Positions 1,668-54,100 of a stretch of 64,000 nucleotides of DNA are shown here, one piece after another. The stretch covers positions 295,671-359,670 of the forward strand of contig OZ244141.1 of assembly GCA_965216295.1 (NCBI GenBank). The letters run 5' to 3'. Numbering within the stretch: the first letter of the stretch is position 1; every line of letters starts with the position of its first letter. Made by a program: the position numbers and the translations under genes. The notes beneath the pieces are model-generated. The model did no database searches. It was not told the DNA's origin and saw nothing but the letters and a program-made list of their open reading frames with translations. Origin of the DNA: Minisyncoccota bacterium (GTDB lineage: Bacteria; Patescibacteriota; Minisyncoccia; Phycocordibacterales; JABAAK01).

Positions 1668-2036
1668 ATGGGTAAATATACAGCAGTCCTTCTTATTATT
1701 ACTGTCATTCTTTTGATACTTTACTTTTTTGGTAATAATGGTAATAAAAGAGATGCTCTTGCTAATACCACTCCGCCATCAGAAGTAACAAAGCTTGGTG
1801 CTTGTGCTATAACAGGATGTAATAGTCATTTGTGTGTAGAGAAAGATCAGGCTAATGATATTGTTACAACGTGTGAATTTCTCCCTGTCTATGCTTGTTA
1901 TCAAAATGTTGGTGTGTGTGAGTGGCAGATTGATGACAATGCCTGTGGTTGGACACAGACGGATGAATTGAAACAGTGTATCGTAGAGGTAGAAAAAGAA
2001 GACGCTCTTAATCGTTCTGTTTACGAGGCTATATAG
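1668..2036 (+). CDS. small N-terminally membrane-anchored cysteine-rich protein, hypothetical
   Basis: 122-aa ORF with an N-terminal hydrophobic anchor (AVLLIITVILLILYFF) followed by a soluble part with 9 Cys. No recognisable family. Its stop codon abuts tRNA-Glu. Confidence 0.45.
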   Translation: MGKYTAVLLIITVILLILYFFGNNGNKRDALANTTPPSEVTKLGACAITGCNSHLCVEKDQANDIVTTCEFLPVYACYQNVGVCEWQIDDNACGWTQTDELKQCIVEVEKEDALNRSVYEAI

Positions 2037-2107
2037 GCCCCATCGTCTAGCGGCTAGGACGTAGCCCTCTCACGGCTGAAACCGGGGTTCGATTCCCCGT
2101 GGGGTCA
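2036..2107 (+). tRNA. tRNA-Glu (anticodon CTC)
   Basis: 72-nt cloverleaf read by eye. Acceptor GGCCCCA/TGGGGTC, T-arm GGGGTTCGATTCCCC, anticodon stem TAGCC/GGCTG with loop CTCTCAC, so anticodon CUC. No encoded CCA. Confidence 0.85.
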
Positions 2108-2164
2108 CATACAGATAATTATTTACATCAATAAATTTAAGGTTGAGTTTTTTATACATAACAC

Positions 2165-2204: not shown

Positions 2205-3296
2205 ATGAGTAACACAAGGTGGAGCAGGATACCAAAAAATATAAGAAAAAATGTTCATGGAATGTGTAGCTATCTAGCGATGTTTCCACCAAATATTCCA
2301 AACTATTTTATTAAAAAATATACAAAAGAAGGTGATGTTGTTTTAGATCCATTTTCCGGAAGAGGTACTACTATCACAGAGGCTTCCTATCTCAACAGAA
2401 AGGCAATAGGTTCAGATTTAAACCCATTAGCAATAGTTTTATCTCGTGCCAAAGTTAGTGTCCCATCAAGAAATTCTATAATTAGAAGAATAAAAAAAAT
2501 TGAAACAGATTTTAAAAAATCAAAAAAAAATAGTATCATCAATCAAGAAAAAAATATAAAGATGATTTTTAATCCTAGTACACTAAGAGAATTAGTTTTT
2601 CTTCAAGATAATTTAAATTGGAAAAAAAATAGAATTGATAATTACATAACTGCAATGATTCTAGGGATTTTACACGGCGGATCAAAAAATTATCTATCAA
2701 TTCAAATGCCTAATACTTTTTCAATGTCTCCAAACTACATCAAAAGTTATATAAAAAAAGAAGGATTGAAAAAAGAATATAGAAATGTATTTAAATGTCT
2801 TCGTAAAAAATTTGAGAATTGTTATGATAAACCAAATATTGCAGGGAATGTATTTAAACAGAATGCATTAAAGATGAATAAGGTGAAAAAAAATAGCGTA
2901 AATTTGATAATCACATCACCACCATATTTAGACGTAATTAAATACGGACAATATAATTGGATAAGGCTTTGGTTTATAAAAGAGGGTGCGAGAAAGATAG
3001 ATCAAACACTATTTACATCTCAATCTCTAAATAAGTATGTTAATTTTATGAAAGATTTTTTAAACCAATCAAAAAAAGTACTAAAAAGAAACGGAAAAAT
3101 TATACTAATAATAGGTGATGTTAGAGGTTTAAATCTTGCGAAAAAAGTTTGGGAAAATAGCGCGGAACCACTCGGTTATGTAAAAGAATATTTGTTAAAG
3201 GATGAAATTGATGAAAACACAAAAACTACAAAAATATGGAATGAAAGAAAGGGAAAAGCTACGAAAATTGATAGAGTTCTTATTTTGTCAAACTAG
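2205..3296 (+). CDS. DNA amino-methyltransferase (N4-cytosine or N6-adenine), motif I then motif IV order
   Basis: 363 aa. Motif I-like VVLDPFSGRGTTITEA lies near the N-terminus and motif IV LIITSPPYLD about 190 aa later, with a putative target-recognition region between. Very AT-rich coding sequence. The 3' end overlaps the convergent GHKL gene by 9 nt. Confidence 0.75.
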   Translation: MSNTRWSRIPKNIRKNVHGMCSYLAMFPPNIPNYFIKKYTKEGDVVLDPFSGRGTTITEASYLNRKAIGSDLNPLAIVLSRAKVSVPSRNSIIRRIKKIETDFKKSKKNSIINQEKNIKMIFNPSTLRELVFLQDNLNWKKNRIDNYITAMILGILHGGSKNYLSIQMPNTFSMSPNYIKSYIKKEGLKKEYRNVFKCLRKKFENCYDKPNIAGNVFKQNALKMNKVKKNSVNLIITSPPYLDVIKYGQYNWIRLWFIKEGARKIDQTLFTSQSLNKYVNFMKDFLNQSKKVLKRNGKIILIIGDVRGLNLAKKVWENSAEPLGYVKEYLLKDEIDENTKTTKIWNERKGKATKIDRVLILSN

Positions 3297-5522
3297 CTTA
3301 TGAAAAATTAATAATTGTAATATTGTACTACTGGCGACAGAAAGCGCCTCATTTTTAAATTCATTGATTGTAGATTCATCTGCAGATTCACCTTTGTCAC
3401 CAACAAAAAGAGAATCAAGATTTTTTGAATGTTCTAAATTAAAACAGGAGTATGCAAGAAATATAGAATAGTGACTTTTCATCTTTTCAATATTTTTTAT
3501 TTTATTCTTTTTTATAAAAGATTGATAATATTTATTAGAGAGATTTATGAAAATTATAATATTATTTTTTGTTTCTTCATATTTTGCAAAATCTTTCTCA
3601 TTGTTAAAAACCCTTTTCCATATTTCGTAAGTTTTTTTATCATCTTTTGATACAGATTTAATTTCAGGAGAACCACGTAAATTTTTTTTATTACCAGAAT
3701 TCTCCTCAATAATAAATATCACCCTCCCTTCACTTATTAAATCTTTTTTATGCGAATTTAACAAAACATGAACTTTAAAATTTTTACCTATTTTTGCAAC
3801 ATTACTTAGAGCACATCTAATTCTGCTTCTACCGCCAAAGAAATTATCTATTTGTATAGAATCTTTTTTAATATATTTTTTACTTTCGTCAATTAATTTG
3901 AGTTGATAGTATTTTGAGGTCTCATTTGATAAATCAGATTCAATATTTAAAGTTAATATTTTACCTATTTTTGCATTTATAGGAGGTTGGTTTGTTATTT
4001 TTATATATGTAGGAAAATCTTTTGTTTCAATTATTTTTTTCTTTCCACCATCACCCGATCCATTACCACCCGATCCACCATCACCTTCAGTTTTTTCATC
4101 ACCCGAAATACTTATTTGTCCAACAAGTAAATTATTTTTTAACATTTTTGCTAAAATTTCTTGCATTTTTTCAGATCCCTTTTGCATACCTTTTGCTGCT
4201 TCTTCAGAATATTTTCTACTTTGTTCATCCAACAGGATAGGGTCATCAGAGATAAACTTAACTATCTCTTCTTTAATTTTCTGCCTAGATTCATTCGTTA
4301 ATCTTTGTCTATCTGTAATAAATGTCTTTTTTTTGCTTTCATTAGAAATTTTATTGCAGTTAACTTCTATAATTAAATTTTCTTTTAATTGTGGGAGTTT
4401 TGCATTTTCTTCAATTAGGCGTCTTGAAAATTTTCCATGTACTTGTCCATTGAATGTTACTAAAATGGGATTTTTACAATCATGTAAAAAACGATTTACC
4501 TTTTGACTTTCACCATTTTTATCATCCTTTAGATAATAGTATGTCAAAACTATTTCCTCCCCATCATTAAAATATTGAGATACTGTAGTTTTATTAAGTA
4601 TTTTATTTTCTTCAACATTATTTATCAACCTTCTTTTTAAACCTTGCATGTTTTTTACATTCCATTGCTCTGGTTTATCTTTTTTGTCTCTATTAAAATA
4701 CCCTATTTTATATGCAAATGCAGGGTTGAAAAGTATTTCATCACAGACCTTATAAAACTCACGTCCAATTATATTTTTTTCAAATTCAATGTGAAAAACA
4801 AGAGTGCCAAAAAAATCCTTTTTAAATCCTTTGTTAATTTCAGAATTAAAAGTTTCCTTCATTTCATCAAAGGGAATTGTTATTGGTAAATCGTCTTCAG
4901 ATGAAACTAGGTATTCATATTTTCCCTGTTTTGCAAACTCATCATCATCTAAGGAATTAAATCGTATAATTGTAAATGAAAGATTTGTATCTTTAACTGA
5001 ACAAATTATCGTATATTTATTACCACCGCAAACCGTCGATCCACCTTGACCAAAAGACCCCATTGTATATTTTTTTCTAAATTTATTAGAGGCATTTAAA
5101 GATAATATAGTATTTGTCATTTCTTCATTTGTTAAACCCACACCATTGTCCCAAAACAAAAAATTAGTAAATTTTTTTGTTTTATGTATTTCCACAAAAA
5201 TGTCATCTTTATGTATTTCTTCATTTTTTTCTTTTAAAAAATTAATAACATCATAAGGGCTATTAAAATTTTCAAATTCTTTATATTTTTTTGCAAATTT
5301 TTCTATATATGCATCAATTGAATTTGTTATACGTTCTAGAAGTAAACCCACATCAGCATCAGCTGAATGTACTGTTGAATAGTTTGCCTCTCTGTCACCC
5401 AAATCTCTCCATTTCAGTTTATCGTCATCATTCAAAGATGACACTATTTGATCAACTTCAACAGTTTCTATATTTCTTTTTTGCAAAAAGGATTTTATAA
5501 TTTTTCTGATGTCATTTCTCAT
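3288..5522 (-). CDS. MORC/Hsp90-like GHKL ATPase with Gly-rich linker and uncharacterised roughly 250-aa C-terminal domain
   Basis: 744 aa. Bergerat-fold motifs are present: N-box ERITNSIDAY, G1 box WDNGVGLTNEEM, G2 box MGSFGQGGSTVCG. A GDGGSGGNGSGDGGKKK linker precedes a C-terminal region with no recognisable motifs. The start ATG overlaps the stop of the upstream 75-aa ORF (ATGA). Confidence 0.7.
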   Translation of the reverse strand: MRNDIRKIIKSFLQKRNIETVEVDQIVSSLNDDDKLKWRDLGDREANYSTVHSADADVGLLLERITNSIDAYIEKFAKKYKEFENFNSPYDVINFLKEKNEEIHKDDIFVEIHKTKKFTNFLFWDNGVGLTNEEMTNTILSLNASNKFRKKYTMGSFGQGGSTVCGGNKYTIICSVKDTNLSFTIIRFNSLDDDEFAKQGKYEYLVSSEDDLPITIPFDEMKETFNSEINKGFKKDFFGTLVFHIEFEKNIIGREFYKVCDEILFNPAFAYKIGYFNRDKKDKPEQWNVKNMQGLKRRLINNVEENKILNKTTVSQYFNDGEEIVLTYYYLKDDKNGESQKVNRFLHDCKNPILVTFNGQVHGKFSRRLIEENAKLPQLKENLIIEVNCNKISNESKKKTFITDRQRLTNESRQKIKEEIVKFISDDPILLDEQSRKYSEEAAKGMQKGSEKMQEILAKMLKNNLLVGQISISGDEKTEGDGGSGGNGSGDGGKKKIIETKDFPTYIKITNQPPINAKIGKILTLNIESDLSNETSKYYQLKLIDESKKYIKKDSIQIDNFFGGRSRIRCALSNVAKIGKNFKVHVLLNSHKKDLISEGRVIFIIEENSGNKKNLRGSPEIKSVSKDDKKTYEIWKRVFNNEKDFAKYEETKNNIIIFINLSNKYYQSFIKKNKIKNIEKMKSHYSIFLAYSCFNLEHSKNLDSLFVGDKGESADESTINEFKNEALSVASSTILQLLIFHKLV

Positions 5523-5746
5523 AATCTAAACTTTTTATTTCTTTTATAATGAAACTTACTTTTTATATTTTTTACCTCTATTTCTATTTCTTTAAATATT
5601 TTTTGAATTTCCGCTTCATTATATTCATATGCACTTCTGTTAGCGCAATTTCCAAGTATTTTTAGAGACTTAAGAACCATGTTAGTTCTATAGTTAGCTA
5701 ATCTTCTAAATCTATCCCTTTTTTCCTTTGGTTTATTATTTATCAT
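5519..5746 (-). CDS. small basic protein, hypothetical; translationally coupled to the GHKL ATPase
   Basis: 75-aa ORF, Lys/Arg-rich, ATG start. Its stop overlaps the GHKL start codon, and an AT-rich putative promoter region (TATATATAT) lies upstream. Confidence 0.45.
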   Translation of the reverse strand: MINNKPKEKRDRFRRLANYRTNMVLKSLKILGNCANRSAYEYNEAEIQKIFKEIEIEVKNIKSKFHYKRNKKFRL

Positions 5747-49334: not shown

Positions 49335-49742
49335 ATGAAACAAAAGGTACGGAAAAGTAAGTATGACGTACGGATTGGTCGCTCTGCGAGTGGGCAGGGT
49401 CTATTTACAAAAGCACCTATTCGAAAAGGGGACTTTGTGATTGAATACCATGGACCTATTATTTCACGTGAACGGGCAGATGCGATGGGAGGGCGGTATC
49501 TCTTTGAAGTGAGTGAACGGAAGGTTATCAATGGTTCGGTGAGGTACAACCTAGCACGCTATATCAATCATTCCTGTCGTCCAAACTGTGAGACTGATGT
49601 GGTGCGTGGGAAGGTGTATATCTATGCGAGACGCAATATTCGTATGGATGAGGAGTTACACTACGATTACGGTAAAGAGTACTTTGAAGAGTTTATTGAG
49701 CCTGCTGGGTGTCAGTGTGAGAAGTGTGCGGGTCGTCGGTAA
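49335..49742 (+). CDS. SET-domain protein (putative protein lysine methyltransferase)
   Basis: 135 aa with RYINHSCRPNCE (the NHSCxPN motif), DEELHYDYG (the ELxxDY motif), and a Cys-rich post-SET CQCEKCAG. Starts 3 nt after the smc stop. Confidence 0.75.
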   Translation: MKQKVRKSKYDVRIGRSASGQGLFTKAPIRKGDFVIEYHGPIISRERADAMGGRYLFEVSERKVINGSVRYNLARYINHSCRPNCETDVVRGKVYIYARRNIRMDEELHYDYGKEYFEEFIEPAGCQCEKCAGRR

Positions 49743-51132
49743 GGAGGTCTGTTTTATAAATTTCTTTTTGTGTTACATATTCTTTGAAAACTTTAAAAAA
49801 ACTTTTTGCCATCTGTTCGTAATAATTTTTGTCATATAAATTTTCATATTCATATTCTTTAGGAAAAGATTCACAGTATTCTCTAGACAAGACATCTTCT
49901 TGTTTTTTTAGTACAGAATCGTTTGATTGATTTTTTTGAAGTTGAAAGGTTTCATGCAACATGTAAGCACCGATATTTTCTAAATTGTGTATAGCATAAA
50001 AATTTTTATGACAAAGCACTGTTTTTTCTATTAAATATTTTTCTGCTGAATCAATAGCAGCAAGGAATTTTTCTTTATCATTATTAAAGATATGCAATAA
50101 AATTTCCATCATGAGATCAATGTTTGTTTTATTTGTTGCTTCTTGTGTGTTATGTTGCAAGACGTTAAGACTGAATGAAGGAAATTTTTGAAGTGTAAAA
50201 AGGTTTCTTAGATTTATTACTTTCATAGGAATAGCAGATTTTACAAAAAGAGCAATTATAAATTGAACTTCGTCATTCAATGGCTGTGGCGTTTGATTCA
50301 TTATTTCGGTATTACAATGTCCTAATACTATCTCTTGAAGTTTATTTAATACTTCTTTTTCTATATTGTATTGATATGGTTCTTTGGAGAAAAATTTATT
50401 TATATATCCATTAAAATCAGTTTCATTTCCATATATATGATGATAGACTTTTTCAAGATTATTAAAATCACCAACGAATATCACTCTATCAAAACCAAAT
50501 TTATTCTTTTCATCATCTTGCAAAGGAGAAAAGGCATTTAGTATTTTAAACGCATGTTTTGGTTCAAGGCGATCTAAATCATCTAATATCAAAATGTTTT
50601 CTTTAGCAAGATCCATTTTATCTTCTCTACCATCTTTTACTTCTTTCAATGCTTCAGAGATGAAATTTTCCAAACAACTATTATGTATTTTTTTTACAGT
50701 ACTTTGGACTTCTGAGTTTTCTCCATTTAAAAGTTTTTTAATGGTTTCAATAGTTTGTGATTTAATACCAACCAAAGATCCAAAACATTTTATTATAAGA
50801 TCTTTTGCATTTTTTAATTTTATTTTTCCATTTTCATCTTTTAAGAATTTATTAATGATAGGCTCGTGTTGCTCTGCTAGTTGTACAAATAAATCAGCTG
50901 CTATAACTTCTAGTATATCAACATCATTGTGTACTTGATATTTAACTGGGTATAAATGAAATGTATTATATTTTTCAGAATTAGCTCTAAAAAATTCATT
51001 TAAAAAGTATGTTTTTCCCATACCAAACGATGCACTAAAGAATATTCTTTTATTACTTTTTAATTCAATAAAAGTATTAAATCCCTCATTTTTAGTTTCT
51101 GTAGATATTATTGTTTTATCCATGTGTAGCAT
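49693..51132 (-). CDS. KAP-like P-loop NTPase, hypothetical
   Basis: 479 aa with Walker A FFSASFGMGKTYFL and Walker B ILILDDLDRL (the hhhhDDLDR type typical of KAP NTPases). The C-terminal 16 codons run through the left direct repeat into the antisense strand of the SET 3' end. Confidence 0.5.
   Translation of the reverse strand: MLHMDKTIISTETKNEGFNTFIELKSNKRIFFSASFGMGKTYFLNEFFRANSEKYNTFHLYPVKYQVHNDVDILEVIAADLFVQLAEQHEPIINKFLKDENGKIKLKNAKDLIIKCFGSLVGIKSQTIETIKKLLNGENSEVQSTVKKIHNSCLENFISEALKEVKDGREDKMDLAKENILILDDLDRLEPKHAFKILNAFSPLQDDEKNKFGFDRVIFVGDFNNLEKVYHHIYGNETDFNGYINKFFSKEPYQYNIEKEVLNKLQEIVLGHCNTEIMNQTPQPLNDEVQFIIALFVKSAIPMKVINLRNLFTLQKFPSFSLNVLQHNTQEATNKTNIDLMMEILLHIFNNDKEKFLAAIDSAEKYLIEKTVLCHKNFYAIHNLENIGAYMLHETFQLQKNQSNDSVLKKQEDVLSREYCESFPKEYEYENLYDKNYYEQMAKSFFKVFKEYVTQKEIYKTDLLTDDPHTSHTDTQQAQ
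49725..49741. repeat. direct repeat copy 1 (TGTGCGGGTCGTCGGTA) at the 3' end of the SET gene; att-like
   Basis: The identical 17-mer recurs at 52986..53002. Flanking similarity extends to about 22 bp with 2 mismatches. Confidence 0.85.
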
Positions 51133-51230
51133 TCTAACATATTAATGAAAAAATAAAATTATCATGAAGAAGGATAAAACTAAGGTTTTAAAACGTTACA
51201 AACAAATAGTTTGTAAAAATTTACTTAAGA

Positions 51231-52010
51231 TTGTATAATAAAAAGATGAACAAAAATAAAACTTTATTTTTCTCCAATCAATGGTTGAATTTTTCTAAAT
51301 TTATTTATGATGTTTTCTCAAAAACACTATTAATTGCGGCATTTATTACACTTATATATTTTCTATTTAAAGGATATTGGATAGAAGTCGGATTATTATT
51401 ATTATTTTCAATATTGATAGCACCAATTATTGAATTTCTGTTAGAAGAAATATTTCGTGTTACATTTTTTACTAAGAAAGAAAGGGTTCTTATGACTAAT
51501 TTTTCTAAGGATAATAACCTAAATGTTGATTCTGTAATGAGTCTTTATGCATCAGGAGCAAAAGACGACATGAAAACATTTTCTGAAAAAACTCAATTAT
51601 TTAAAATGCTATCTCCAGAAAAAAAAGGACTTTCGGCAGTGTTTGGTATTGCGCCTACGATGCTTATTAGTTTATTTGCATATGCAGGATTACTTAGTTA
51701 TTTTTCTACAGGGAATATATATAGTGGAATAGACATCAATTATTTAAACTACGCTTCAATATTGATATTATATCTTGCAGTCGATGTTAGAATTTTACTT
51801 GTTGAAATATATTTTTCCCGACAGCTTAGTGTAACTCCATATGAACAATTTATATTGCCTTTTAAAATAATTACAATACTGCTTTTATGTCTTTTTTTAT
51901 TTTTAAACATTAACTTATCTTATACATTAATATTCAGTGTCGGATTACCATTAATTTTTATATTTTCTATAATAATGTTTTATGGTATTGCGAAAAAGAA
52001 AGATTTGTAA
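51231..52010 (+). CDS. polytopic membrane protein, hypothetical
   Basis: 259 aa with several hydrophobic helices. AT-rich, inside the repeat-bounded segment. Confidence 0.45.
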   Translation: MYNKKMNKNKTLFFSNQWLNFSKFIYDVFSKTLLIAAFITLIYFLFKGYWIEVGLLLLFSILIAPIIEFLLEEIFRVTFFTKKERVLMTNFSKDNNLNVDSVMSLYASGAKDDMKTFSEKTQLFKMLSPEKKGLSAVFGIAPTMLISLFAYAGLLSYFSTGNIYSGIDINYLNYASILILYLAVDVRILLVEIYFSRQLSVTPYEQFILPFKIITILLLCLFLFLNINLSYTLIFSVGLPLIFIFSIIMFYGIAKKKDL

Positions 52011-52309
52011 GTAAGGGTGGAAAATTTATCAAGTGACGCACGGAAAACGAGAAAATCGTTTTTTAAAGTTTTATTCTGTATCTTTGTTGTTAAGTATTAT
52101 ATATTATTTTATATTTTTAACTACGAAGTAGTAGGGAAGAGCATCAAAGAAATTTTTTACTGTTTTTATTTTTGAAAGAGAATGAGGATATAGGTAGAAA
52201 ATCTTTACTAAACATAGTCAACATCGTATCACCTTTTTAATAATCAGTAAAAGGGTAATGAAAACAAATATTAAATCTGATACTAAAATAAGAAATGACA
52301 ATAATATTA

Positions 52310-52954
52310 TTATTTTTTATTTAAATATAAATCTCTTAAATATATGCCACCTATTTCAACAAATTCATTAGCAAAATCATACATTCCATTTTCATATGCG
52401 TAATTTTTCAGTAACACAATAACCTCACTATTACTTTGTATGAATTCTTTCATTGTTTTGAAAGAGCATTCCTGTATATCATATTTACTATCAAAATGTT
52501 GCCCTTCAAATTGTTTAAATAAGAAATCTTTTTCTTTCAATATCATTTTTTTAAGACCACTATTTTCTAATTTAGTTAACCCCAATTCTGTAAGAGCGGA
52601 AGGGGATTGTGATTTAACATTTATTGGAAACTTATCTTCTAAAACTCCTTGTGCTTTTATAATGCTACATCGTGAATCTTCAGGCAAAATACCGACATTT
52701 TTATTAGTTAATGCCTTACATATTAGTTTCAATGGGGAACTCAAATTTTCTCCCAATGATTGAAGATCTTTAGGTGTATCAAGTAATTTTTTAATTTTTT
52801 TCCCAACACCCGAAAAAAGACCTAAAACAATCCCCAAGGCAATTATCGTGGTAGATATGGTAGAAACAATATTAAGAATTTCTATCCAATTCATATTCAT
52901 AAGTATTATAACAAAATTAATAATATTTTGCAAAATCACTACTATTTCTATCAT
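52310..52954 (-). CDS. membrane-anchored hypothetical protein
   Basis: 214 aa. One or two N-terminal TM helices, then a soluble domain with no recognisable motifs. Confidence 0.4.
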   Translation of the reverse strand: MIEIVVILQNIINFVIILMNMNWIEILNIVSTISTTIIALGIVLGLFSGVGKKIKKLLDTPKDLQSLGENLSSPLKLICKALTNKNVGILPEDSRCSIIKAQGVLEDKFPINVKSQSPSALTELGLTKLENSGLKKMILKEKDFLFKQFEGQHFDSKYDIQECSFKTMKEFIQSNSEVIVLLKNYAYENGMYDFANEFVEIGGIYLRDLYLNKK

Positions 52955-52985
52955 ATCTGCAATATATCAATCAAAATACTATAAT

Positions 52986-53002
52986 TGTGCGGGTCGTCGG
53001 TA
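52986..53002. repeat. direct repeat copy 2 (TGTGCGGGTCGTCGGTA)
   Basis: Identical to 49725..49741. In-frame it reads C-A-G-R-R-stop, as does the SET gene end. Confidence 0.85.
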
Positions 53003-53072
53003 GGGATGAAAGTAAAAAATTATTAAAATCCACAAAAAGAAAAATAGAGAAGGAAATAGAAAACGCACAGCA

Positions 53073-53104
53073 GTAGAAAGAATCGAACTCTCGTTTCGTG
53101 CTTG
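53073..53104 (-). repeat. partial tRNA-Gly copy (T-arm to anticodon-stem segment), 29 of 32 identities to the tRNA-Gly gene at 54035..54066
   Basis: gtagaaagaatcgaactctcgtttcgtgcttg here versus gtagggagaatcgaactcccgtttcgtgcttg in the gene. Same orientation. Lacks the acceptor 3' end. Confidence 0.7.
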
Positions 53105-53152
53105 ATTTGTACACATTGATATTTTTAATATCATAAATTATAATAACTACAT

Positions 53153-53359
53153 ATGAATAACTACTTTGAAATGTATTTCAACAGGATGTTTAAGAAAAAA
53201 AATCTATTGAAAGTATGGTTTGATAGTGGTAGTTTTTGGAAAAAAGTTTTTGCTGTTATTGGGCTTTTTGCATGTTATACATCATATGTACTCTTTGCGC
53301 TCTTTATAGTCTATAAAGTATCATATTGGATATCAGTGTACATATATTCACGATATTAA
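53153..53359 (+). CDS. small membrane protein, hypothetical
   Basis: 68 aa with one TM (VFAVIGLFACYTSYVLFALFIV). AT-rich. Confidence 0.3.
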   Translation: MNNYFEMYFNRMFKKKNLLKVWFDSGSFWKKVFAVIGLFACYTSYVLFALFIVYKVSYWISVYIYSRY

Positions 53360-53443
53360 GGTGGAGCAAAATACGGAAAGTGTGTAGAGATTGATAGGGT
53401 AGTGAGAATATATTTTTAAAATAAAAATCTTATTTTATTTCAA

Positions 53444-53986
53444 TTATGGAAAAATATTGAAAAATACAAGAACCAAAAGTAGCGAAGGGGATAGTAAAAG
53501 AGAGGTAAATAGAAAGTCTTTACTCAACAAGGTGGTAAAAAAATTTGAATCTTTCGCGAGTGGTTCACCATATTTATTTTTATCTGCATCACCTTTTTTA
53601 AAACATAACCAAAGAATAAAAAGAATATATATTATACATGAACTTGAATAAATTAAACTAGTAAAAGGAACCTCTATTTCATGAAATCTATTTTCCTGAA
53701 TTATAGCCAGTGGCAATTCTAAGACGATATACATTGGTAAAAAGATTAATATCCACCAACCACTTGCATTAAAATCATGCAATCTTTTAACCATAAAGAT
53801 TGTTAAAATAAAAGCTATAATGAATACGAAAAAATAGTCTAAAAAATAGTCTAAAACACTAGGAGGTTGAAAAAATTGACGACCGTACAAGTTTAATAAA
53901 AAAGGAACAGAAAAAAATATCATTAAAGACATCCCGATCCCAAAAATATAAAATTTTCTATTTATTCTATCATTAATTTTTTCCAT
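53444..53986 (-). CDS. DUF805-family inner membrane protein
   Basis: 180 aa with the RLHDFNASGWWIL motif characteristic of DUF805 (YhaH-like) proteins, and multiple TM helices. Confidence 0.6.
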   Translation of the reverse strand: MEKINDRINRKFYIFGIGMSLMIFFSVPFLLNLYGRQFFQPPSVLDYFLDYFFVFIIAFILTIFMVKRLHDFNASGWWILIFLPMYIVLELPLAIIQENRFHEIEVPFTSLIYSSSCIIYILFILWLCFKKGDADKNKYGEPLAKDSNFFTTLLSKDFLFTSLLLSPSLLLVLVFFNIFP

Positions 53987-54026
53987 ATAACGTTATTACT
54001 ATTATACCTATCGTTTAATTTCTAAA

Positions 54027-54100
54027 TGGTGCGGGTAGGGAGAATCGAACTCCCGTTTCGTGCTTGGGAAGCACGCGTCATACCACTAAACTATACCCGC
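54027..54100 (-). tRNA. tRNA-Gly (anticodon CCC), CCA encoded
   Basis: Reverse complement gives GCGGGTA-TA-GTTTAGTGGTATGAC-G-CGTGC-TTCCCAA-GCACG-AAAC-GGGAGTTCGATTCTCCC-TACCCGC-A-CCA. Confidence 0.8.

Follow-up and report, generated by a model that had tools for sequence, protein, structure and literature searches.

A tethered two-part module, probably non-catalytic, at the C-terminus of a GHKL ATPase in a restriction-modification-like cassette

What does the C-terminal third of a GHKL ATPase do when no known domain can be recognised in it? The question is raised by a minus-strand gene in a 64,000-nucleotide stretch of the genome of a Minisyncoccota bacterium (GenBank assembly GCA_965216295.1, contig OZ244141.1, positions 295,671 to 359,670; hereafter the window), where it lies beside a gene for a DNA methylase. 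A first-pass annotation of the sequence had marked about 250 residues downstream of a glycine-rich linker, and suggested that they may form a new domain with a nuclease, DNA-binding or sensor function. We find that the region is a module of two parts, probably non-catalytic, in which an immunoglobulin (Ig)-like beta-sandwich is followed by an acidic sheet-plus-helix domain. With about even confidence, we propose that the protein is a MutL/MORC/Top6B-like clamp ATPase of a restriction-modification (R-M)-like cassette, and that its tethered tail dimerises or docks a partner.

The layout of the gene is as follows, with the basis of each assignment in brackets (aa, amino acid residues).

3288-5522, minus strand: whole ATPase gene, encoding a 744-aa protein predicted to be a GHKL clamp-type ATPase with a tethered C-terminal module (open reading frame, AlphaFold2 model)
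4923-5522, minus strand: N-terminal arm (aa 1-54) and Bergerat-fold ATP-binding domain, together aa 1-200 (Pfam, invariant columns, profile, Foldseek)
4308-4922, minus strand: second, transducer-like domain, aa 201-405 (Foldseek, conservation)
4113-4307, minus strand: long helical stalk, aa 406-470, with helices at 410-425 and 428-463 (AlphaFold2 secondary structure)
4035-4112, minus strand: disordered Gly/Ser/Lys tether, aa 471-496, including GDGGSGGNGSGDGGKKK (model confidence, tandem repeat)
3699-4034, minus strand: Ig-like beta-sandwich, aa 497-608 (structural superposition on Ig-like domains)
3666-3698, minus strand: short flexible connector between the two C-terminal subdomains, aa 609-619 (model confidence)
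3291-3665, minus strand: compact, acidic three-stranded sheet with five helices, aa 620-744 (AlphaFold2 model)

The boundaries of the module are given by a full-length AlphaFold2 model, built with a 62-sequence alignment, whose mean predicted local distance difference test score (pLDDT) is 88.4 and which drops below 50 only at aa 473-493 and 609-615. The first of these stretches is the flexible glycine-rich linker of the first-pass annotation, and its character holds family-wide: across 82 full-length relatives the same position is occupied by a low-complexity segment of variable length, from 13 to 134 aa. In the window protein the sequence GDGGSGGNGSGDGGKKK spans aa 480-496 (4035-4085) and the tether ends in KKK; the tether core (4044-4088) consists of three tandem 15-nucleotide (nt) units resembling TCCACCATCACCCGA, which implies that the linker grew by pentapeptide duplication in this lineage. 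The annotation had placed its uncharacterised domain at 3288-4070, and this interval does contain the module downstream of the linker, although the limit at 4070 falls inside the linker itself. The stop codon is at 3288-3290, and the module proper is aa 497-744, that is, 248 aa at 3291-4034; the two peptides that had been quoted as examples, IKITNQPPINAKIGKILTLNIESD (aa 507-530) and FFGGRSRIRCALSNVAKIGKNFKVHV (aa 561-586), both lie downstream of the tether.

Structure prediction, which had been proposed as a check, resolves the module into two well-folded subdomains. When modelled alone (AlphaFold2, 43 sequences), the module reaches a pLDDT of 93.1 with a predicted template modelling score (pTM) of just 0.59, and pLDDT drops at model residues 118-121, which correspond to the connector. 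The pattern of high pLDDT with low pTM fits two rigid subdomains on a hinge; the connector measures 11-36 aa across the family. Residues 497-608 superpose on Ig-like domains and include a conserved FPTY/F motif with P504, as well as D530, G564 and G579, and in aa 620-744 the conserved positions are W635, N660/N663, L666 and Y685. No structural match to aa 620-744 appeared in two match lists, both dominated by Ig matches, for which this subdomain was not queried alone. Sequence searches were silent throughout the region: Pfam, NCBIfam, PADLOC and PHROGs gave no match in the C-terminal 248-260 aa, and in 62 relatives nothing beyond HATPase_c_3, and PDB sequence and profile searches gave no match either, the best profile hit being a phage Dit-like protein at E 0.053. 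The view that no motif can be assigned is therefore upheld, and the domain is new in the sense that no Pfam, NCBIfam, PADLOC or PHROGs family covers it; its first half, however, is an ordinary Ig-like beta-sandwich. A separate observation concerns an exact 17-nt repeat in the Ig-like part, with copies at 3782-3798 and 3959-3975 that each encode AKIGK. Both AKIGK strings are those quoted in the first-pass annotation, each copy spans a family-conserved glycine (the G520 region and G579), and the repeat may be an internal duplication or may have arisen by chance.

The C-terminal region is confirmed as a real conserved module, rather than a chance open reading frame (ORF). An exhaustive hidden Markov model (HMM) search with a profile of the module retrieved 660 cluster representatives (clusters at 50% identity) at E<=1e-3, 222 of them at E<=1e-10. 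It was this search that revealed the family, a word-indexed search having found 12 relatives and word-indexed alignment searches few sequences or fragments. In all full-length hits, which are proteins of about 710-920 aa, the module is C-terminal and the N-terminal ATPase with its invariant motifs is present, while shorter hits resemble fragments at contig ends; other architectures bearing the module were sought among the relatives, and neither these nor further partner domains were found. A scan of one genome per species yielded at least 480 loci in bacteria (Bacteroidota, Acidobacteriota, Myxococcota, Pseudomonadota, Bacillota, Chloroflexota and Actinomycetota) and archaea (Thermoplasmatales, Thaumarchaeota, Methanobacteriota and Micrarchaeota). 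Five plasmid-borne homologues were also found, and the two that were inspected are both labelled 'hypothetical protein' in RefSeq.

Is the module an enzyme? In 176 family sequences, conservation of 80% or more is confined, within the C-terminal region, to P504, D530, G564, G579, W635, L666 and Y685, and the conserved residues of the module are almost all structural. D530 is the sole C-terminal column that is at least 75% acidic or basic, and no histidine conserved at 60% or more was found after aa 362. Signatures of PD-(D/E)XK, HNH, GIY-YIG, phospholipase D (PLD) and HxH type were sought in the module and none is present; likewise, no D...(D/E)xK, HNH, GIY-YIG or PLD signature occurs in the strands and helices of aa 620-744, and no conserved cluster of acidic, histidine or lysine residues was found either family-wide or in the subset of relatives linked to a methylase. 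That subset does have extra charged positions, namely D502, K521, K526, E546 and acidic residues at 574, 637 and 653, the last three being acidic in about 80% of the methylase-linked relatives. D502, K521, D530 and E546 are conserved in the subset and retained in the window protein, which at four other charged positions of the subset carries N526, N574, R637 and N653. Because no catalytic constellation is conserved, a nuclease reading is unsupported.

Such a reading would place the nuclease of a GHKL-type restriction enzyme in all or part of the module and would give it an active site of an unrecognised kind. Its precedent lies in the experimentally known type II enzymes of the HgiDII/BbrUII family, in which an N-terminal GHKL domain precedes a C-terminal one that has been assigned to no nuclease fold; R.HgiDII and four other subfamilies in REBASE combine N-terminal GHKL with unassigned C-terminal regions, for which experiments have been called for (Orlowski and Bujnicki, PMC2441816). 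Four of 62 relatives match the NCBIfam BbrUII/HgiDII model NF050001 weakly (best E 2.3e-5, far under the cut-off of 550 bits), and the window protein itself gives no match to it at E<=1; for a neighbouring GHKL protein, the match to this model falls within the GHKL part (model positions 18-194). The nuclease reading also gains from the absence of any other candidate nuclease in most cassettes, and from the conservation of D502, K521, D530 and E546 in the methylase-linked subset. Set against these points are the solitary D530 column, the N, R and N found at positions 574, 637 and 653 of an intact window protein, a first half that is a plain Ig sandwich and a second half devoid of nuclease signatures, and we consider a nuclease in this module improbable.

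A DNA-binding role is a second possibility, and Ig-like folds of the p53, NF-kB and Runt type can indeed bind DNA. In this case the Ig-like sandwich would bind DNA, position the clamp and perhaps read the unmethylated site; the KKK at the end of the tether is consistent with this, as are K521 and K526, which are basic in 90% of the methylase-linked members. The electrostatics point the other way, however, since, across the 82 full-length relatives, the Ig part has a median net charge of 0 and the second subdomain one of -6. Nothing suggests that specificities have been swapped either. In pairwise comparisons over 53 loci, identity values for the ATPase module, the Ig part, subdomain 2 and the adjacent methylase co-vary (Spearman 0.81-0.91), pairs with ATPase modules 83-100% identical have Ig parts 73-98% identical, and a swapped or hypervariable tail was sought among close relatives and not found. 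Finally, the module is common to the methylase-linked members and to a phosphorothioation-linked subfamily described below, which argues against the reading of one particular mark. On balance we think it unlikely that the module serves chiefly to bind DNA.

The same comparisons bear on the suggestion of a sensor. Ig-like domains are common recognition modules, and one could imagine that this one recognises a phage or other foreign protein and switches on the ATPase, with the methylase having a separate role. Evolution is indeed quicker in the C-terminal part, whose mean pairwise identity is 0.33-0.36 against 0.44 for the ATPase. Yet neither hypervariability nor domain exchange is seen between close relatives, the module diverging smoothly with the ATPase and the methylase, and the close, translationally coupled association with a modification enzyme is a better fit for the marking of self and non-self DNA than for protein sensing. 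A sensor strikes us as very doubtful, and of the three functions raised by the first-pass annotation, the nuclease is not borne out while DNA binding and variable sensing or specificity are both weakened.

The remainder of the protein is easier to place. Pfam HATPase_c_3 matches aa 61-195 above its cut-off (E 6e-7), and the motifs of the ATP-binding domain are E63-x3-N67-x2-D70, D125-x-G127-x-G129, K147, G155...G160-G161 and T184. Motif I (E63, N67, D70) is invariant in 84 of the 84 sequences that cover it, as are D125, G127 and G129 of motif II and K147, G155 and G160 in the family, with G161 at 92%. The original GHKL ATPase call is thereby secured: motif I, motif II, a glycine-rich ATP lid (motif III) and a Bergerat fold are all present. 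W38, G42 and N47 are conserved in the N-terminal arm; G294, G359, Q360 and R405 of the second domain are invariant in the family, Q360 and R405 having been considered in connection with the conserved basic residue that reaches the gamma-phosphate from the second domain of clamp-type GHKL ATPases; and L424, L430 and charged positions are conserved in the stalk. Foldseek aligned about 450 columns with GyrB 43K, ParE 43K, the MORC3/4 ATPase and Hsp90 N+M at E 1e-8 to 1e-11, with probability 1.00 for the GyrB, ParE, Hsp90 and MORC ATPase domains, and the TM-scores normalised to the target are 0.41-0.47 for the two-domain fragments of GyrB 43K, MORC3/4 ATPase and Hsp90 N+M. A transducer or S5-like domain thus follows the ATP-binding domain, as expected of a clamp-type GHKL protein. 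In profile searches the ATP domain matches Topo VI-B best, both in the PDB (E 1.3e-3, which is weak) and in NCBIfam; other PDB profile matches, all weak and in the ATP domain, are to Hsp90 and MutL (MutL ATP-binding region, E 0.8). The closest conserved stretch to the MORC S5 motif GhXhhpXXRhl is G294-x3-R298-L299, with a different spacing, in a comparison with the motif pattern.

If the tail is to dock a partner, which partners are at hand? The ATPase gene lies in an island that has 27% GC, compared with 41% genome-wide, begins immediately after a tRNA-Glu gene and holds three genes, the ATPase gene and two others.

2036-2108, plus strand: tRNA-Glu (CTC), the low-coordinate edge of the island (ARAGORN)
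2205-3296, plus strand: DNA methyltransferase of 363 aa, N6_N4_Mtase family, with permuted motif order (Pfam, PADLOC)
5519-5746, minus strand: ORF for a basic protein of 75 aa (alignment, HMM)

At the opposite edge of the island, a search for direct repeats of the tRNA end, as expected of an att site, found none. The 3' end of the methylase gene is convergent with the ATPase gene and overlaps it by 9 bp, and the stop of the 75-aa ORF overlaps the start of the ATPase gene (ATGA). This low-GC island beside a tRNA, with a convergent, overlapping, type II-like methylase, agrees with the defence context that had been presumed for the ATPase. Elsewhere in the window, a second low-GC island (25-27% GC, 49693-54100) adjoins tRNA-Gly (54027-54100) and contains a KAP-family P-loop NTPase (49693-51132, minus strand), a DUF805 protein and two ORFs without a family match; it may be another acquired or defence island.

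The methylase matches Pfam PF01555 (E 6.6e-22) and the PADLOC model MTase_II PDLC03325 (E 1.8e-43), and its S-adenosylmethionine (AdoMet) motif, DPFSGRGTT at aa 48-56, precedes SPPY at about aa 238, an order permuted relative to the Pfam N6_N4 model. The SPPY motif hints at N4-cytosine specificity. PDB matches (TTHA0409-type, N4-cytosine methyltransferase, CcrM and M.PvuII) cover the AdoMet motif only. A homologous methylase adjoins the ATPase gene in 70 of 92 loci, mostly directly downstream with overlapping stop and start, and in 43 of the 92 an HMM detects the gene for the small protein immediately upstream, in the same orientation. The small protein is basic (median net charge +7), has F13, R20, N36, Y40, K49 and F73 invariant in 38 sequences, and found no match in Pfam, PHROGs or PDB. 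The arrangement shares with type II R-M systems the presence of an adjacent DNA methyltransferase.

The order small protein, ATPase, methylase recurs in loci L001-L010, whose surroundings differ. In L001 and L002 the cassette sits in unrelated chromosomal positions; in L003-L005 it lies in a defence island with Vsr, NgoPII, Dcm, GmrSD and HEPN genes; and in L006 it lies beside Schlafen-like helicases. Many cassettes are flanked by housekeeping genes, which implies that the cassette is self-contained and that no separate nuclease is part of it. An endonuclease with a recognisable fold (PD-(D/E)XK, HNH, GIY-YIG, PLD or half-pipe) was sought in the ATPase, the small protein and the methylase, and none was found.

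Several loci depart from the basic arrangement. In L008 (5106-5624), and also in L009 and L010, the small-protein HMM also matches (E 3.6e-11) a 172-aa ORF that is flanked by the genes for the 86-aa small protein and the 878-aa ATPase; in this branch the small partner is duplicated or extended. In several Bacteroidota loci (L024, 9074-11487; L034, L049, L054 and L060) the methylase is followed by a protein of about 270-300 aa and then by a second, shorter HATPase_c_3 protein of 504-521 aa, which makes this either a longer form of the cassette or a neighbouring system. In L075 (3210-5054) a neighbouring 614-aa GHKL protein matches NCBIfam MzaB (E 1e-20) and, weakly, the BbrUII/HgiDII model; GHKL defence proteins of different kinds are thus found together at the same loci.

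The coupling to a methylase is not universal. A subfamily of longer ATPases, of about 810-830 aa, has the same C-terminal module and occurs without the methylase, and usually without the small protein, in Ssp/Dnd-type phosphorothioation loci (L011, L077-L082, L086 and the plasmids L092 and L093). Its neighbours are DUF4007 (SspB-like), an ATPase of about 1100 aa, a phosphoadenosine phosphosulfate (PAPS) reductase (SspD-like), DndB, and DUF262-HNH (SspE-like) or SIR2. The family thus resembles SspBCD(E) systems insofar as the long subfamily, with the same tail, is encoded beside Ssp-like genes; the window copy differs in being linked to a methylase and not to Ssp genes. No GHKL or HATPase component is mentioned in the Ssp papers that our searches retrieved. 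Since the same ATPase and tail are coupled to two DNA-marking chemistries, the tail presumably neither reads one particular mark nor docks specifically on the methylase.

How might such a protein work? The order of ATP-binding domain and transducer (aa 1-405), stalk (406-470), tether (471-496) and C-terminal module would correspond to the plan of a clamp. The module would be the protein-protein end, at which protomers pair constitutively or a partner docks, and a ring would form around DNA when ATP drives the N-terminal domains to dimerise. In MutL and Hsp90, such ring closure is made possible by the C-terminal domains. The ring would close on DNA that does not bear the methyl mark of the cassette, given that the ATPase is the non-methylase component of a mobile R-M-like cassette and presumably acts on DNA without that mark. 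For the Ig part there is a precedent in certain Top6B orthologues (M. mazei), whose dynamic C-terminal Ig beta-sandwich may localize Top6 to a partner protein (PMC13040014), and by analogy this lends support to partner docking. The analysis shows where the domains begin and end and how they fold, that no catalytic constellation is conserved, that the module is confined to this ATPase, and that the genes are linked and widely distributed; dimerisation or docking, ring closure, a defence activity, and how DNA would be cut, if it is cut at all, we infer.

Several points weigh against a clamp whose non-catalytic tail dimerises or docks. First, with no nuclease in most cassettes, a restriction-like function would go unexplained unless it is non-cutting or depends on an unrecognised active site. 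Second, D502, K521, D530 and E546 in the Ig part could form a functional site. Third, aa 620-744 may resemble a known dimerisation domain or enzyme fold. Fourth, the Ssp-linked subfamily retains the module while lacking the methylase and usually the small protein, which implies that the docking partner, if there is one, is neither the methylase nor the small protein.

Comparison with known systems places the family among GHKL proteins of restriction systems, without making it identical to any of them. GHKL ATPases beside DNA methylases have been predicted to be parts of restriction systems since 2008, when MORC and paraMORC1-5 proteins were described in R-M operons, each with its own C-terminal extension (Iyer, Abhiman & Aravind 2008, PMC2292703). 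The window family resembles these in combining GHKL with a second domain, in its family-specific extension and methylase neighbours, in its lateral mobility in bacteria and archaea, and in that both may be engines that manipulate DNA, as has been proposed for MORC. It lacks the restriction endonuclease (RE) fold of paraMORC3/GHKL-Shedu (DUF4263, E-D-ExK; Pfam, PADLOC and conservation), the TIR domain of paraMORC4, which is absent from the window protein and from the neighbours examined, and the C-terminal HxH of paraMORC5. Genes for a superfamily II (SF-II) helicase, Vsr or an RE-fold protein are not conserved neighbours, the constant partners being instead the small basic protein and the permuted N6/N4 methylase, or the Ssp module. 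The window family may be paraMORC1, with which it was compared by description only: paraMORC1 has a conserved extension beyond S5 and co-occurs with MORC genes, methylases or HNH, whereas no MORC gene was seen in the neighbourhoods of our family. VcSduA, a GHKL-Shedu (paraMORC3) protein, likewise joins a GHKL ATPase through a middle region to a C-terminal module, but there the module is a DUF4263 PD-(D/E)xK nuclease and the protein acts by itself (PMC12137116), whereas the window gene is linked to modification and has no nuclease motif.

R.HgiDII and R.BbrUII share with the window protein the N-terminal GHKL, an adjoining DNA methylase and a C-terminal region without a nuclease fold, the C-terminal parts being likened by description only. 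They differ in that their partner methylases (M.HgiDII and M.BbrUII) are of the 5-methylcytosine (m5C) type rather than N6/N4, and in that the window family also has the small upstream partner. MutL has a similar succession of GHKL and transducer, disordered linker and C-terminal (dimerisation) domain; in the window family, however, the C-terminal fold starts with an Ig sandwich and has no metal site of the DQHA(X)2E(X)4E type, and neither Pfam nor NCBIfam finds DNA_mis_repair or MutL_C in the window protein or its 62 relatives. The known MutL/MORC dimerisation domain that the first-pass annotation had set as the alternative to a new domain was thus not confidently assigned. Topo VI-B (M. mazei) is what the ATP domain matches best in profile searches, and it too has a transducer followed by a long helical stalk, with a dynamic Ig sandwich at its far C-terminal end (PMC13040014). 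The match is weak (E ~1e-3), however, no Top6A/Spo11-like partner is encoded nearby, no H2TH was detected, and the window protein has an extra acidic alpha/beta domain after its Ig part. Our literature searches turned up no described GHKL-methylase defence system of this architecture. The family is best filed with the GHKL ATPases of modification-dependent restriction systems, among which its Ig-plus-acidic tail, small basic partner, permuted methylase and alternative Ssp coupling are distinctive.

Finally, we note what the cassette may represent. It is widespread, contains no recognisable nuclease, and belongs to a family that is absent from Pfam, NCBIfam and PADLOC. A tentative proposal, which we regard as possible though rather doubtful, is that it is an undescribed and widespread bacterial and archaeal system of modification-dependent immunity, which would either exclude unmodified DNA through ATP-driven clamping or compaction, with no conventional nuclease, or cut DNA, in which case a novel type of active site would lie in the C-terminal module or the 75-aa partner. 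The role of the unassigned C-terminal domains in real GHKL-type enzymes such as R.HgiDII and R.BbrUII is a standing question, and an active site of a new kind, if it exists, would answer where such restriction enzymes keep their nuclease. A tail that is a non-catalytic Ig-plus-helical module would narrow the question to two choices: restriction without a classical nuclease, or an active site in an unexpected place.

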